The position numbers and the translations under genes are program-made. Shown one piece after another: positions 6,566 through 12,469 of a DNA stretch of 54,849 bases. Origin of the DNA: Actinomycetota bacterium (GTDB taxonomy: Bacteria; Actinomycetota; UBA4738; HRBIN12); contig DASTHN010000054.1 of assembly GCA_035718185.1 (NCBI GenBank), forward strand, positions 1-54,849, written 5' to 3'. The notes beneath the pieces are model-generated. The model was not told the DNA's origin, made no database searches, and saw only the letters and a program-made list of their open reading frames with translations. The first letter of the stretch is position 1. Every line of letters starts with the position of its first letter.

Positions 6566-7486
6566 ATGCTCCGGGTCCGACGTTCGCTCATCGCCCTCGC
6601 GACCGCCGCGCTCGTCGCGGCCGCCTGCGCCCCCGAGGTCGACCCGATCACCACGGTCCTCGACGACGACGCGATCACGATCGGGTCCTTCAACTTCCCG
6701 GAGAGCGTCCTGCTGGGGCAGATCTACGCGCTCGCGCTCGAGCGGGAGGGCTACCAGGTGATCCGCGAGCTCGACCTCGGCCCTCGCGAGTTCGTGGCGC
6801 CCGCCGTGCTCCGCGGCCTCGTCGAGCTGGTCCCGGAGTACAGCGGGAGCGCCCTCGAGTTCCTCGAGCTGACCGCCTCGCCCGACCCCCAGGCGACCCA
6901 CACGGCGCTCGTCGAGGCGTTGGCGGATCACGGGCTGACCGCGCTCGCGCCGGCGCCCGCCGAGGACCGGAACGCGTTCGCCGTCACCGCGGAGACGGCG
7001 AACGAGCTCGGCATCCGCACGCTGAGCGAACTCGTGCCCTACTCGGCCGACCTCACCTTCGGGGGCCCGCCGGAGTGCCTGAGCCGCCCGCTCTGCCTCC
7101 TGGGGCTGGAGCGCGCCTACGGGATGCAGATCGGCAGCTTCGTACCGCTGGACGAGGGCGGCCCGCTCACCGTCGCAGCGCTCCGGACGGGCGAGGTCGA
7201 TGTGGCGCTCCTGTTCTCGAGCGCGGGGGCGATCGAGACGAACGGCTTCGTGCTCCTCGAGGACGACGGCCAGCTCCAGCCCGCCGAGAACGTGACGCCG
7301 GTGATCCAGCGGGAGGTGCTCGAGCGGTTCGGCGACGGCGTCGCAGAGGCCCTCGACGCCGTCTCGGCCCAGCTGACCACCCAGGACCTCCGGCGGATGA
7401 ACGCGGCGGTCGCGGGCGGGGCCTCCCCGCGGTCCGTGGCTGCGCGGTGGCTCCTCGAGCACCCATCGGCGCAACCGCCCGGGTAG
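6566..7486 (+). CDS. OpuAC/OsmX-family ABC substrate-binding lipoprotein (orphan in this window)
   Basis: Lipobox LVAAAC; IGSFNFPESVLLGQIY, PEYSGS, LEDD...PAENVTP. No permease or ATPase gene adjacent. Confidence 0.85.
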   Translation: MLRVRRSLIALATAALVAAACAPEVDPITTVLDDDAITIGSFNFPESVLLGQIYALALEREGYQVIRELDLGPREFVAPAVLRGLVELVPEYSGSALEFLELTASPDPQATHTALVEALADHGLTALAPAPAEDRNAFAVTAETANELGIRTLSELVPYSADLTFGGPPECLSRPLCLLGLERAYGMQIGSFVPLDEGGPLTVAALRTGEVDVALLFSSAGAIETNGFVLLEDDGQLQPAENVTPVIQREVLERFGDGVAEALDAVSAQLTTQDLRRMNAAVAGGASPRSVAARWLLEHPSAQPPG

Positions 7487-7510: not shown

Positions 7511-9196
7511 GTGGACACGAGAGGTGGATCCGAGGGCACCACGCTCCGACTGCCCCCGCCGCCCGACGCGCTGGGGCACCGGCGGCGCCCGTCCGGCGAG
7601 GCGCCCCCGCTCCCCCACGAGCTCGGCCGCACGGGGAGGATCTGGCTCCTGCTCGCCCTCTACCTGGCGATCGCGATCACGATCGCGATGTCGTACGGCC
7701 CGCTCCGGCGAGCCGCGGAGGCCTTCGACACCGCCCTGTTGCGCTTCTTCGCCGAGCTGCGGACACCGTGGCTCACGGACCTGGCGCTCGTCGTCAACGC
7801 GCTCGCATCCCGATGGACCATCCGGATCCTCCGATGGGTGACGATCGGGATACTGGTGGCCTTCCGTCGATGGCGGCACCTCGTGGTCTTCCTCGGCGCG
7901 GTCGTGAGCGTCGAGATCATCGCGTACCAGCTCTCGCTCGCGATCGCGCGCCCCCGGAGCTTCGACGTTCGGATCATCACGGACTGGAACGGCTTCGCGA
8001 TGCCGTCTCGCCCGGTGGTCTCGATCGCCATCACGATGATCGCTATCGCGTACACGCTGATCGTCCCCGGACGCTCCCGGTACCTAGCGAAGTGGGCGAT
8101 CGCGGGCGTGCTCGGGCTGCTCTGGCTCACGCGCATGTACCTGGGGGTCGACCAGCCATCGAGCCTGCTGTTCGGGGCCGTGCTCGGGGTGGCGCTCGGC
8201 GTGACCGCGTTCCGCTGGTTCGCCCCGAACGACGTGTTCCCGGTCTCCTACCGACGAGGCAAGGCGGCGCACCTGGACGTCGGCGGTCGACGAGGCGAGG
8301 CGATCGTCCGGGCCGTCCGCGACCAGCTCGGGCTCGAGGTGGCCCAGGTCAAGCCGGTGGGGCTCGAGGGCTCGGGCGGTTCCACGCCGCTGCGCCTGCG
8401 TGTCCGCGGGGAGGACGGCACCGAGCACTCCGTCTTCGCGAAGCTCTACGCGAGGAGCCACGTCCGCGCGGACCGCTGGTACAAGGCCGGGCGGACGATC
8501 CTGTACGGCGCCCTGGAGGACGAGGCGCCCTTCCACGGCGTCCGGCGCTTCGTCGAGTACGAGGACTACACGCTCCGCCTGCTCGAGGACTACGACCTGC
8601 CGACGCCGGAGCCGTACGGCATCGTCGAGATCACGCCGGAGCGCGAGTACCTGATCGTGATGGAGTTCTTCGACGGCGCGGTCGAGCTCGGCGACGCCGA
8701 GATCGACGAGCAGGTCGTGGACGAAGGGTTGCGACTCGTCCGGAACCTGTGGGACGCGGGGCTCGCGCATCGGGACGTGAAGCCCGCGAACCTCATGGTC
8801 CAGGACGGCCATCTCCGGCTCATCGACGTGTTCTTCGTCCAGGTCCGGCCATCGCCGTGGCGTCAGGCCGTGGACCTCGCGAACATGATGCTCGTCCTGG
8901 CGCTCCGCTCGGACGCACCGACCGTCTACCGGCGGGCGCTCGCGTACTTCACCGAGGATGAGATCGCGGAGGCGTTCGCCGCCACCCGAGGGGTCGCGAG
9001 CCCCACGCAACTTCGGACCAGCTTGAAGCGAGACGGCCGTGACCTCCTGGGCGAGTTCCGCGCGCTCGCGCCCGCCCGGCCGCCCATCCGGATCCAACGA
9101 TGGAGCCTGCGTCGGATCGTGCTCACGATCGGCGTCGCCATCGCCGCGTTCTTCGCGGTCGGGATGGTCATCAGCAACTGGACGGTGTTCGCATGA
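7511..9196 (+). CDS. Membrane protein: degenerate PAP2-like TM domain fused to a protein-kinase-like (RIO/Kdo/Hanks-like) domain, plus a C-terminal TM helix
   Basis: PAP2 remnants ARPRS / MPSRP / TRMYLGVDQPSS. Kinase motifs GLEGSGGS, FAKLY, EYEDY, VMEF, HRDVKPAN, LIDVF. SD GGAGGA before the GTG. Confidence 0.8.
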   Translation: MDTRGGSEGTTLRLPPPPDALGHRRRPSGEAPPLPHELGRTGRIWLLLALYLAIAITIAMSYGPLRRAAEAFDTALLRFFAELRTPWLTDLALVVNALASRWTIRILRWVTIGILVAFRRWRHLVVFLGAVVSVEIIAYQLSLAIARPRSFDVRIITDWNGFAMPSRPVVSIAITMIAIAYTLIVPGRSRYLAKWAIAGVLGLLWLTRMYLGVDQPSSLLFGAVLGVALGVTAFRWFAPNDVFPVSYRRGKAAHLDVGGRRGEAIVRAVRDQLGLEVAQVKPVGLEGSGGSTPLRLRVRGEDGTEHSVFAKLYARSHVRADRWYKAGRTILYGALEDEAPFHGVRRFVEYEDYTLRLLEDYDLPTPEPYGIVEITPEREYLIVMEFFDGAVELGDAEIDEQVVDEGLRLVRNLWDAGLAHRDVKPANLMVQDGHLRLIDVFFVQVRPSPWRQAVDLANMMLVLALRSDAPTVYRRALAYFTEDEIAEAFAATRGVASPTQLRTSLKRDGRDLLGEFRALAPARPPIRIQRWSLRRIVLTIGVAIAAFFAVGMVISNWTVFA

Positions 9197-9762
9197 GGGC
9201 ACGCGGCGTGCTCGTCCTCCTGGTGGTCCTGGCGGCGCTCCAGCCGGCCTGCGCGACCAGCACGAGCGCGATCCTCTCGTGTCGGCTGAACGAGCAGAGC
9301 CTCATCCTCACGGCGCAGGCGGTGCCGTCGGCCGCGCTCGTGCCCTGCGTCGCGGAGCTCCCCGCCGGGTGGTCGTACGCGGGCACGGACATCCGGAGCG
9401 GGCGGGCCCGGTTCTGGCTCGACTCCGACCGCGGCGGCCTCCACGCCGTCGAGGTCGAGCTGACGCGCTCGTGCGATACCTCGAAGGCCGTCGAGGTGCG
9501 GCCGGCCCCGGACGAGAGCGGCGCCCGCGTCTACGCCGAGCCGATCTCGCTCGAGCCGGCGCTCTGGGCGAACCGATACGTCGTGTTCTCCGGCGGCTGC
9601 ACGACGTACCGCTACCGGTTCGTGCCCGACGCCCCGTCGACGCTCTCCCTGGAGGCGGAGGAGGCGTTGGGGTTCTTCCCTCGCTCGGCGCTCGTCCAGG
9701 ATGTGCAGGACCGGTTCGGTCTCACGCTCTGCGGGGCGGGGGCGCCCCCGTGTGAAGGGTAG
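9193..9762 (+). CDS. Cys-rich lipoprotein of unknown function (189 aa)
   Basis: ATGA overlap with the kinase stop; MRAR + hydrophobic core + LQPAC lipobox-like site; six further Cys. Confidence 0.75.
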   Translation: MRARGVLVLLVVLAALQPACATSTSAILSCRLNEQSLILTAQAVPSAALVPCVAELPAGWSYAGTDIRSGRARFWLDSDRGGLHAVEVELTRSCDTSKAVEVRPAPDESGARVYAEPISLEPALWANRYVVFSGGCTTYRYRFVPDAPSTLSLEAEEALGFFPRSALVQDVQDRFGLTLCGAGAPPCEG

Positions 9763-9773
9763 GCTGGCCCCCC

Positions 9774-10466
9774 GTGCTGAGGAACCATCGCCGCTCCTTC
9801 CTCCACGCCATCGCGCTCCTCGGAGCGATGGCCGCCGTCTTCTACGCGGTCGGCGTCCATCCCCCGACCGCTGCCCCGCGGACGACCGTGCCCTTCGTCG
9901 GCGAGATCGACAAGATCGTCTACGAGTCGATGGACGACATCCGGAACCTGGTCCTGAGCGGTCTCGCCAGGGCGCTCAACGTCCTCGGCGGAGGTTGGGT
10001 CACGATCCCGCTCCGGATCCTGGTCGCCGGATGGCTGGCGCTGCGCCGCAGGTGGCGGGCGTTCGCCGTCTGGGTGCTCACGTGGGCGACGGCGGAGACC
10101 ATCGTCGAGGTGGCGAAGACCTTCTTCCACCGAGGCCGGCCGGACCTCCCACTCGTCGACACCGTCGGCTATTCCTTCCCCTCCGGCCACGCCGTGGCCG
10201 GAGCCTCGATCGCGGTCGCGCTGGTGCTCGTGCTCTTCCCCGCGGGGCCCGAGCGCCGGCGCTGGGAGTGGCTCGCGGTCGCGTTCGCGTTCGTGATGGC
10301 GTTCTCCCGGGTGTACCTGCGTGCGCACTGGCTCTCGGACGTCGTCGCGGGGGTCCTGCTCGGGAGCGGCGTCGCCCTGGGGATCGCGGCGACCGTCTCC
10401 GAGATCCGATACCACGTCCTCCGCCGGTGGTGGCCGACCCCCGAACCCGAGCCCGAACGCAGCTGA
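9774..10466 (+). CDS. PAP2 family membrane lipid-phosphate phosphatase
   Basis: All three motifs intact: KTFFHRGRP, FPSGH, SRVYLRAHWLSD. Confidence 0.92.
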   Translation: MLRNHRRSFLHAIALLGAMAAVFYAVGVHPPTAAPRTTVPFVGEIDKIVYESMDDIRNLVLSGLARALNVLGGGWVTIPLRILVAGWLALRRRWRAFAVWVLTWATAETIVEVAKTFFHRGRPDLPLVDTVGYSFPSGHAVAGASIAVALVLVLFPAGPERRRWEWLAVAFAFVMAFSRVYLRAHWLSDVVAGVLLGSGVALGIAATVSEIRYHVLRRWWPTPEPEPERS

Positions 10467-10469
10467 GGC

Positions 10470-11555
10470 TCACTCGCCGACGACGGGGACGCTCAGCGCA
10501 TCCCGCGGGGCGGGCGCTCGCCGCCAGCTCCGCTTGAGGCGCCAGATGACGTACGTGAACGCGCCGAGCGGGATCTGCACCCCGTACGTGAGGGCGCGGA
10601 AGAGCAGCACCGCGGCGACCACCTGTGCCTCGTTGCCGCCCGCCGCGACCAGCCCGCCGATGTACCCGAGCTCCACCACGCCGAGCCCCCCGGGCGTGAT
10701 GGGCAGGGCCGCGATCAAGCGGCCGAAGGCGAACACCGCGAGGACCTGCGCCCAGCTCACCTCCTCCTCCGAGATCCCCACGTTCCTGAGCGACAGCAGC
10801 AGCACGAAGTACAGGGCCAGCTGACTGAGGACCGTCGTGAACGTGAGCCACGGCCATCGGCGCGCGACGAGCTGGATCGTCTGCTTGCGGAACCGGACCG
10901 CCGCCTCCCCCCAGCCGGACACCGGCGGTCGACGCACGATGCGCAGGAACCACGAGGCCGCGGCGCCCAGACCGTCGCCGATCCGCCGGGCGAAGGCCTT
11001 CTTCCACAGGATCAACCCGAACAGCGAGACCGCGACGAGGAGGACCACCACGCCGACCATCGCCGCGACGACCAACACGCTCGTGAGCTCCCCCGTGATC
11101 GCGAGGAGGCCGAGCGAGACGATCGGCAGACCCAGCTTCATGAACACGTTCCAGATGCCGGTCACGAGGACGTAGAGCGAGATCGCGGACGCCGTGAAGC
11201 CCCACGAGCCGAGGATCTGGTACGTGAGCCCGACGGCGATCGCGCCGCCGGCGGGGATCGTGTTCGCCACCGAGGTCGTCGTCTGCGTCACCACCGCTGC
11301 CTGCCCCAGCCGGAGCCCGGGCAACGCGGCCATGTTCGCGAGCCAATACGTGAACAGGTTGAAGACCGTTGCGGCCACCAGCGACCAGAGCTCGAGCGGG
11401 GTCAGATCCTGCAGGGTGCGCCAGACGTCGTGGTAGTCGGCGATGCGCGGGATCGCGAACCAGAAGATGCCGACCACCAGCGCCAGCGACACCACGGCCT
11501 GGACGACGCGTTTCATCGTCGAGCGCCGCGCTCGAGGCGGGGCGGCCTCGCTCAC
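10470..11555 (-). CDS. UPF0104 / lysylphosphatidylglycerol-synthase TM (flippase-like) membrane protein
   Basis: About 8 TM segments; ANTIPAGG, LPITPGGLGVVE, AVLLFRALTY. GTGA overlap with the ppk2 stop. Confidence 0.85.
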   Translation of the reverse strand: MSEAAPPRARRSTMKRVVQAVVSLALVVGIFWFAIPRIADYHDVWRTLQDLTPLELWSLVAATVFNLFTYWLANMAALPGLRLGQAAVVTQTTTSVANTIPAGGAIAVGLTYQILGSWGFTASAISLYVLVTGIWNVFMKLGLPIVSLGLLAITGELTSVLVVAAMVGVVVLLVAVSLFGLILWKKAFARRIGDGLGAAASWFLRIVRRPPVSGWGEAAVRFRKQTIQLVARRWPWLTFTTVLSQLALYFVLLLSLRNVGISEEEVSWAQVLAVFAFGRLIAALPITPGGLGVVELGYIGGLVAAGGNEAQVVAAVLLFRALTYGVQIPLGAFTYVIWRLKRSWRRAPAPRDALSVPVVGE

Positions 11556-12469
11556 CCGACCAGCGATGCCGCGTGGTCCGGCACGTATGCGGAGGCCTCG
11601 CGCGGGGGGCGGACGTACCCCTCGTCGCTCTGGCGCGGCGGGATCTCGATGTCGGCCTCGGGGCGGGCCTCGTACGGGATCTGCGACAGCAGGTGCGCGA
11701 TGCAGTTCAGCCGCGCGCTCGGCTTGTCGTCAGCCTCGACCGTGTACCAGGGCGCCTCGGGGATGTCCGTGAAGACGAACATCTCGTCCTTCGCGCGCGA
11801 GTAGTCGACCCACCGGCTCCGCGAATGCAGGTCGGTCGGCGACAGCTTCCAGCGGCGCATCGGATCATTGATCCGCGATTGGAACCGCCGCTCCTGCTCC
11901 TCGTCGGAGACCGAGAACCAGTACTTGATGAGGATGATGCCCTCCTCGACGAGCAGCCGCTCGAAGATCGGGCACTGCCGCAGGAACCGGCGGTGCTCCT
12001 CCGGCGTGCAGAAGCCGAGGACCTTCTCCACGCCGGCGCGGTTGTACCAGGAGCGGTCGAACAGTGCGATCTCGCCCGCTGCCGGGAGATGCTGGATGTA
12101 GCGTTGGAAGTACCACTGCGAGCGCTCGCGCTCGGTCGGGACCGGCAGCGCGACGATACGCGTGATCCTTGGGTTCATGTACTGCGTGATCCGCTTGATG
12201 GTCCCGCCCTTCCCGGCGGCGTCCCGGCCCTCGAAGATCACGACGAGCCGCGCGCCGACGTCGGCGACCCACTGCTCCATCTTCGCGAGCTCTTCCTGCA
12301 GTCGGCGCAGCTCCTTCTCGTAGACCTTCTTCGGCAGTCGCGTCCGGTGATCCTCGATGTCCGAGTGCTTCGGGTGCTTCTTCGGCTCGCGTCCCTGCTC
12401 GGTCTTCACGACGGACCTCCCCACCACGTCCCCTGGCGGCATCTTCGCATGCGAACGGGGAGCGCTCAT
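11552..12469 (-). CDS. ppk2: Polyphosphate kinase 2 (single domain)
   Basis: FEGRDAAGKGG (Walker A), FDRSWYNRAGVEKV, KYWFSVS, WKLSP. Start taken at the ATGA overlap with truB (alternative ATG at 12442). Confidence 0.95.
   Translation of the reverse strand: MSAPRSHAKMPPGDVVGRSVVKTEQGREPKKHPKHSDIEDHRTRLPKKVYEKELRRLQEELAKMEQWVADVGARLVVIFEGRDAAGKGGTIKRITQYMNPRITRIVALPVPTERERSQWYFQRYIQHLPAAGEIALFDRSWYNRAGVEKVLGFCTPEEHRRFLRQCPIFERLLVEEGIILIKYWFSVSDEEQERRFQSRINDPMRRWKLSPTDLHSRSRWVDYSRAKDEMFVFTDIPEAPWYTVEADDKPSARLNCIAHLLSQIPYEARPEADIEIPPRQSDEGYVRPPREASAYVPDHAASLVG

Follow-up and report, generated by a model that had tools for sequence, protein, structure and literature searches.

A 54,849-nucleotide stretch of DNA from an Actinomycetota bacterium (contig DASTHN010000054.1 of assembly GCA_035718185.1; hereafter the window) carries, at positions 7511..9196 of the forward strand (+), a gene for a 561-aa protein in which a PAP2-like membrane domain is joined to a RIO/Bud32-like kinase and a C-terminal transmembrane helix, as assigned from the translated open reading frame (ORF), Pfam and NCBIfam searches, an AlphaFold2 (AF2) model and Foldseek. 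The membrane domain is confirmed as a true PAP2 homolog with a PAP2 fold; it has lost both catalytic histidines and, judging from its sequence, should no longer be able to work as a PAP2 phosphatase. A predicted PAP2 lipid phosphatase with intact motifs (hereafter the live PAP2; 9774..10466, +; 230 aa, Pfam PAP2 71.2 bits) lies two genes downstream, as an earlier sequence-only reading of the window had correctly placed it: it is the second gene 3' of the fusion gene, after a lipoprotein gene (9193..9762, +). We consider it moderately probable that the degenerate domain serves the kinase as an outward-facing sensor that binds a lipid (pyro)phosphate without catalysis. The live PAP2 is its old, co-inherited paralog.

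PAP2 fold and loss of catalytic residues

The PAP2-fold pseudo-phosphatase domain spans residues 41-238 (7631..8224, +), with helices from 41-60 through 216-237 in the AF2 model. In a pairwise BLASTP comparison, residues 1-260 of the fusion protein aligned with the live PAP2 at 28% identity over 163 aa (42.7 bits, E = 1e-9); the same match against all ORFs of the genome had an E-value of 2.4e-5. The strings that had earlier been matched by eye between the two proteins are found again in this alignment. Pfam PAP2 (PF01569) matched residues 161-238 with 20.1 bits (E = 5.6e-4), which is below the 27.2-bit gathering cut-off, and some relatives pass that cut-off (e.g. P0128 at 35.3 bits). A profile built from 58 full-length homologs matched Bacillus subtilis PgpB (5jki) over residues 60-228 with an E-value of 2.5e-9. 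The AF2 model of the fusion protein (predicted local distance difference test, pLDDT, 77.5; predicted template modeling score, pTM, 0.61) was superimposed by Foldseek on the same structure with a template modeling score (TM-score) of 0.79 and a root-mean-square deviation of 2.8 Å over 196 columns, as a PAP2 fold of six transmembrane helices.

None of the three motifs of active PAP2 enzymes (C1, KxxxxxxRP; C2, PSGH; C3, SRxxxxxHxxxD) is present in the fusion domain. In C1 (remnant LAIARPRS; 7937..7960, +), KTFFHRGRP of the live PAP2 is matched by SLAIARPRS of the fusion: the Lys is replaced by Ser, Arg147 and Arg149 are kept, and the Pro is replaced by Ser. In C2 (8003..8014, +), PSGH has become PSRP, with Ser166 kept and the His replaced by Pro168. 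In C3 (8129..8164, +), SRVYLRAHWLSD of the live PAP2 is matched by TRMYLGVDQPSS of the fusion; Arg208 is retained, the nucleophile His is replaced by Asp214, which is followed by Gln215, and the charge-relay Asp is replaced by Ser218. Three MAFFT modes and hmmalign gave an identical motif alignment with no gaps in C3. The loss of both catalytic His residues alongside retained Arg residues, which had been read from the sequence by eye, is thereby borne out.

The effect of single replacements at the corresponding positions is known for Escherichia coli PgpB (PMC7413402). The C1 mutant K97A was fully active, so the loss of the C1 Lys alone is not decisive for inactivity. Mutation of the C2 His (H163A) left 27% of the activity on undecaprenyl pyrophosphate (C55-PP) and 0.09% on phosphatidylglycerol phosphate (PGP), mutation of the C3 His (H207A) made activity undetectable, and D211A kept 0.07-0.1%. 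The H207A protein also bound phosphate more tightly (+17 °C), via R104, S161 and R201 (PMC7413402). Because H163, H207 and D211 have no counterparts in the window protein, we expect it to show no PAP2 phosphatase activity; its counterparts of R104, S161 and R201 are in place and could still allow it to hold phosphate.

We then counted residue states over 192 full-length family members. The C2 His position is occupied by Pro in 168 of them and by His in 2, and the C3 His position by Asp in 171 and by Glu in 10 (Asp or Glu in 181). The retained residues are widely shared as well: Arg147 is found in 184/192 members, Arg149 in 182/192, Ser166 in 184/192 and Arg208 in 171/192. Both His losses are thus family-wide and ancient and not a matter of strain-specific decay.

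In most deep lineages C3 reads R-x5-D-H-P-x-D, with a His one residue past the canonical position (the +1 His) and the canonical Asp. The homolog of the cultured Blastococcus sp. VKM Ac-2987 (NZ_JAPVBG010000002.1, locus L073) is of this type. Taking this DHPxD as a retained C3 nucleophile His is ruled out by the gap-free alignments, which put this His at +1 and show an Asp at the canonical His position. The window clade has Gln and Ser at the +1 His and canonical Asp positions (DQP[ST]S), a state common to most homologs with at least 65% identity. On the family tree the +1 His has undergone 19 or more changes of state and the Asp 10 or more, and both DHxxD and DQPxS/DAPTS/EAPTS types are present among the 20 syntenic orthologs, which together argues that these two residues are dispensable. 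Their raw association is strong (H/D in 57 and Q/S in 62 of the 192 members) but not phylogenetically independent; over independent tree pairs, few of them informative, coupled loss gave a median p of 0.63. Whether a live PAP2 is adjacent showed no correlation with the loss of these two residues.

The ratio of nonsynonymous to synonymous substitution rates (dN/dS), taken from the closest ortholog pair only because dS is saturated and the ratio unreliable for distant orthologs, came to 0.20 in the PAP2-like domain and 0.10 in the kinase, which indicates purifying selection and not decay. The pseudoenzyme status first suggested from the sequence thus finds support in the motif losses and in the dN/dS of the domain, and extends to the whole family.

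Family, membrane topology and kinase domain

A word-indexed search returned at least 8000 family matches, and the N-terminal domain alone matched 1319 clusters at 50% identity, 140 of them with E-values of at most 1e-30. Most genomes of the class carry the fusion (191 of 294, with 1-4 copies each). Named carriers are Acidimicrobiia, Ilumatobacter, Blastococcus sp. and metagenome-assembled genomes (MAGs) labelled Frankiaceae and Mycobacteriales. The source genome of the window, an actinobacterial MAG of 3.0 Mb (71% GC in the window contig), has four fusion paralogs, namely the window copy and those on contigs C148, C178 and C107, with 48-64% overall identity. The paralog on C148 (locus L011) keeps DHPSD; the PAP2 motifs of those on C178 (L013) and C107 (L012) are far more degenerate. 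In databases the family proteins go under no more specific names than 'RIO1 family kinase/ATPase' or 'PAP2 family protein'. The PAP2-like domain is the defining N-terminal module of this large, unstudied family of receptor-like membrane proteins, which is ancient and widespread in actinobacteria. Full-length members at 52-58% identity were also seen in MAGs labelled Planctomycetaceae, Kiloniellaceae and Myxococcales (L066, L069 and L072), for which wrongly binned contigs are a more probable cause than wide transfer.

The modeled topology puts the N-terminal tail and the positively charged loops RRWRH and PGRSR in the cytosol, the C1-C3 remnants on the outward face, and the kinase, which follows the sixth transmembrane helix, in the cytoplasm. 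The predicted cytosolic tail contains a near-invariant motif, RRRPSGxPPPLP (residues 24-35; 7580..7615, +), which is disordered in the model and in which R25, R26, P27, S28, G29, P32, P33, L34 and P35 are each at least 90% conserved in our family alignment (A1). The motif resembles a basophilic phosphorylation site or pseudosubstrate, or else a proline-rich motif for docking.

Conservation within the PAP2-like domain peaks in the cytosolic loop RRWRH (residues 119-123; 7865..7879, +), with R120, W121 and R122 invariant in A1. The live PAP2 mirrors this loop as R[RK]RWRA and also has PxGxxRR[RK]WEW. The RRWR and PxGxxRRxW motifs are thus common to the two proteins (7865-7879 and the 10050-10070 region), and other PAP2 proteins of the genome are mostly without them. 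The shared loop motifs suggest a common cytosolic partner surface.

The kinase domain (8285..9070, +) retains invariant K311, H420-R421-D422, K424, N427 and D439, with the catalytic loop HRDxKPAN at residues 420-427. Its activation segment is very short: about 9 residues separate D439 from an SPW motif, and a full activation segment is missing. By Pfam it is of the RIO/Bud32 type (RIO1, PF01163), with a marginal pass over residues 344-440 (23.8 bits versus a cut-off of 22). The Hanks-type Ser/Thr kinase model (Pkinase, PF00069) reached 21.9 bits versus a cut-off of 31.7 and covered the catalytic loop only. Foldseek matched the kinase to RIOK1, PRPK and eukaryotic protein kinases, with the fold nearest to RIO/Bud32. 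The NCBIfam equivalog models for Bud32 and Rio1 scored far under their cut-offs, so the fusion protein is no ortholog of either.

At the C-terminus, a transmembrane helix (residues 533-555; 9107..9175, +), which is helical in the AF2 model, leads to the outside. In the paralog on C148 (C148:9091-11241) and in many relatives of 707-735 aa, this helix runs on into an ectodomain homologous to the lipoprotein encoded next to the fusion in the window. The lipoprotein is Cys-rich and is 36% identical to the C-terminus of the C148 paralog; its gene overlaps the end of the fusion gene in an ATGA, and we take it to be the split-off ectodomain of the family. Its AF2 model has a pLDDT of 86.6, and a fold search gave weak matches only, to PsbP-, Apa-, RseB- and DcrB-like folds with TM-scores of at most 0.41. 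The PAP2-like domain, the kinase, the transmembrane helix and the fused or split-off ectodomain together amount to a receptor-like design. Several larger relatives (P0159, P0174, P0198, P0214, P0141 and P0251) carry a STAND NTPase with TPR, or REC with or without a LuxR HTH, ahead of the PAP2-like domain.

Candidate role, alternative explanations and origin

The fusion gene, the lipoprotein gene and the live PAP2 gene stand in one operon, 3' of an orphan OpuAC-type substrate-binding protein gene (6566..7486, +; Pfam OpuAC E = 6.3e-44), which is the first gene of the conserved cluster. The gap between the OpuAC-type gene and the fusion is 24 bp, and that between the lipoprotein gene and the live PAP2 is 11 bp. 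The order and strand of these four genes are identical in 20/20 orthologous loci, which were drawn from 13 groups of genus rank, belonging to two groups of family rank within this taxonomic order; the lipoprotein gene directly follows the fusion in all 20. The live PAP2 and the dead domain are therefore stably co-inherited, and the one observation that speaks for their functional pairing is this conserved gene order.

In the explanation we favor, the degenerate pocket would face the outer leaflet, with the kinase in the cytoplasm. The pocket would bind a phosphorylated envelope lipid, e.g. a polyprenyl or other lipid (pyro)phosphate, without catalysis, and the lipid signal would be passed from the pocket to the kinase; the live PAP2 would probably act on the same lipid class. 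Ligand binding, signaling and any physical pairing of the two PAP2 proteins, as the sequence-only reading had also imagined, are all inferred here. What tips the balance toward a sensor that controls the kinase is the receptor-like design together with the signaling domains of the larger relatives (STAND NTPase with TPR, REC with LuxR). The ectodomain fused in many members and the orphan binding protein gene that adjoins the fusion belong to the same signaling context.

A more specific version of the sensor can be offered only tentatively, and we hold it to be rather less likely than the general one. Here the family would form a new class of bacterial receptor kinases whose ligand site is a fossil PAP2 active site, made of an Arg-Ser-Arg phosphate cradle and of an Asp where the nucleophile His once stood. 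Such a receptor would read the outer-leaflet pool of carrier-lipid (pyro)phosphate that is turned over by the live PAP2 and by a PplT-type translocase encoded beside it. If so, envelope lipid recycling would be directly coupled to cytoplasmic phosphorylation.

Several points weigh against a sensor. The live PAP2 is no universal partner, being absent beside the three other paralogs of the same genome and at most distant loci. The Arg, Ser and Asp residues may be conserved for structural reasons. The kinase fold is nearest to RIO/Bud32 proteins, which are often ATPases instead of signaling kinases. The DHPxD motif of the deep lineages and the tolerance of PgpB to K97A and H163A mean that some relatives may remain enzymes; the DHPxD relatives may have residual or altered activity, and the ancestral role of the family may have been catalytic instead of sensory.

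The most probable of the alternatives is that the domain is a membrane anchor or oligomerization scaffold without a ligand pocket; its docking partner might be the live PAP2 or another copy of the domain itself. The most invariant residues (R120, W121, R122, G187 and R190) indeed lie in cytosolic loops and not in the pocket, and the domain has changed faster than the kinase (51-56% versus 76-79% identity to distant orthologs). PAP2 proteins can also oligomerize; PLPP3 is reported to be a tetramer (PMC13500480). A plain anchor, however, would need none of R147, R149, S166, R208 and D214, which are kept on the outer face in 171-184 of the 192 members, and of these Arg149, Ser166 and Arg208 match the phosphate-holding residues of PgpB (PMC7413402). 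We regard the anchor as an unlikely explanation.

Somewhat less probable still is that the domain remains an enzyme with altered chemistry, in which Asp214, or the +1 His of relatives, would serve as the nucleophile on a pyrophosphate lipid within a phosphatase-kinase enzyme of lipid cycling. An acidic residue at position 214 in 181/192 members would suit such a role, as would the His-Asp pair with i,i+3 spacing that DHPxD keeps, the activity left in PgpB K97A and H163A, and the link of the cluster to a PplT-type translocase. The +1 His and the Asp, however, were changed repeatedly while the proteins stayed under selection, the window clade has neither residue, and the REC-LuxR and STAND-TPR fusions point to signaling. 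We know of no PAP2 enzyme with an Asp nucleophile.

The origin of the two PAP2 domains bears on the last alternative. Within the genome, the live PAP2 has its best paralog on contig C41, a stand-alone PAP2 protein (48% identity, 92 bits); BLASTP gave 41.6 bits for the live PAP2 against the fusion and 41.2 bits against a PAP2 on contig C26. A hidden Markov model (HMM) of 21 live-PAP2 orthologs scored the C41 protein at 110 bits, the C26 protein at 59 bits and the fusions at 33-36 bits. Seen from the other side, an HMM of 104 fusion N-terminal domains gave 92.6 bits for the live PAP2 and 53.3, 43 and at most 32 bits for the other stand-alone PAP2 proteins, and all 20 live-PAP2 orthologs reached 70-100 bits on it. 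Among the stand-alone PAP2 proteins of the genome, the live PAP2 is thus the closest to the family profile of the dead domain. The PAP2 motifs are intact in 21/21 cases (the window copy and its 20 orthologs). In a maximum-likelihood tree all fusion domains form one clade (support 100/99) and the live PAP2 joins the C41 protein (91/90); the two domains are not mutual nearest relatives, as recent tandem paralogs would be. A clade uniting the fusion domains with the live PAP2 was not rejected by the approximately unbiased (AU) test (p = 0.277), so the tree speaks against a recent duplication while leaving room for an ancient sister relation.

The local duplication that the sequence-only reading had proposed, in the form of a recent copying of the operon PAP2 in or near this lineage followed by kinase fusion and then catalytic decay, is very improbable: the live PAP2 is the best stand-alone match to the dead domain (42.7 versus 33.5 bits in BLASTP, 92.6 versus 53.3 in the HMM search) and shares its RRWR and PxGxxRRxW loops, and the AU result is compatible with it, but the fusion with the same losses occurs in the 191 genomes of the class and beyond these in Acidimicrobiia, in Blastococcus and in the Frankiaceae- and Mycobacteriales-labelled MAGs, the genome holds four paralogs in a single fusion clade, and the live PAP2 is far closer to the C41 protein (48% identity) than to the dead domain (28%). 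We read these results as excluding a recent local duplication of the live PAP2. An ancient duplication in an ancestor of the operon is possible, and the live PAP2 is an old paralog of the dead domain.

Neighboring genes and comparison with known systems

Convergent to the cluster lies an LPG_synthase_TM/PplT-type gene (10470..11555, -; Pfam E = 4.6e-19), which resembles lipid translocases and adjoins the cluster in 17 of the 20 orthologous loci. At distant loci the gene after the fusion is mostly that of the lipoprotein, and the PplT-type gene is often next, directly after the lipoprotein gene in several. An OpuAC-type gene is frequent at these loci, and a PAP2 of the neighbor type is only sometimes present.

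A PPK2 gene (11552-12469 in the window) adjoins the PplT-type gene here; loci L049, L051 and L065 were compared, and in other genomes the PPK2 gene lies between ribF and the OpuAC-type gene. Its position differs between genomes, which marks it as a movable neighbor outside the fixed gene set of the cluster. Two related genomes have two fusions per locus, a second, diverged fusion paralog (C3 DYPxN) lying beyond the PplT-type gene (L048:2828-4765 and L052:2834-4561).

Among the papers covered, we found no specific account of a PAP2 domain fused to a kinase or of a pseudo-PAP2 in bacteria. An operon with a dead and a live copy offers a clean natural case of the transition from hydrolase to receptor. 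If the pocket binds a carrier-lipid phosphate, Actinomycetota would have in the fusion a sensor that directly reads the recycling of envelope lipids, a question so far approached only via indirect stress sensors.

With bacterial PAP2 phosphatases (B. subtilis PgpB/YodM, 5jki; E. coli PgpB; LpxE, 6ebu) the window domain has in common the fold of six transmembrane helices, the positions of the C1 Arg, C2 Ser and C3 Arg, and the outward pocket. It differs from them by the absence of the C1 Lys, C2 His, C3 His and C3 Asp, by its fusion to a cytosolic kinase and by its Pfam score below the cut-off.

Pseudoenzyme sensor domains as such are already known, from the PLPPR proteins of animals and from the MviN-fused pseudokinase of mycobacteria. 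Eukaryotic PLPPR/PRG proteins are pseudoenzymes of the PAP2 fold that have lost catalytic residues and act in lipid-phosphate signaling instead of hydrolysis. They have no kinase fusion and are of independent origin, and the likeness to the window domain is one at the superfamily level. The mycobacterial MviN/MurJ-pseudokinase (Rv3910) combines a polytopic lipid-handling domain, a cytosolic kinase-like domain, a single transmembrane helix and an extracellular domain. Its layout is like that of the fusion protein, with the roles reversed: there the flippase is active and the kinase dead, whereas here the lipid domain appears dead and the kinase looks intact.

Fusions of protein kinases with PplT have been described in Actinobacteria, the kinase domain being linked to a translocase domain of the MprF type (bioRxiv 10.1101/2022.03.11.483950). 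In the window, by contrast, the kinase and the PplT-type protein are encoded by separate, convergent genes, and among 270 family proteins examined we found no PplT fusion; the preprint makes no mention of PAP2. The GlnH-GlnX-PknG signaling system of Mycobacterium and Corynebacterium is the subject of two reports (PMC6069109, PMC9769921). There, too, the gene of an orphan solute-binding lipoprotein lies beside a membrane component and a Ser/Thr-type kinase. The membrane component and the kinase family differ from those of the fusion, and the resemblance is a functional analogy only.

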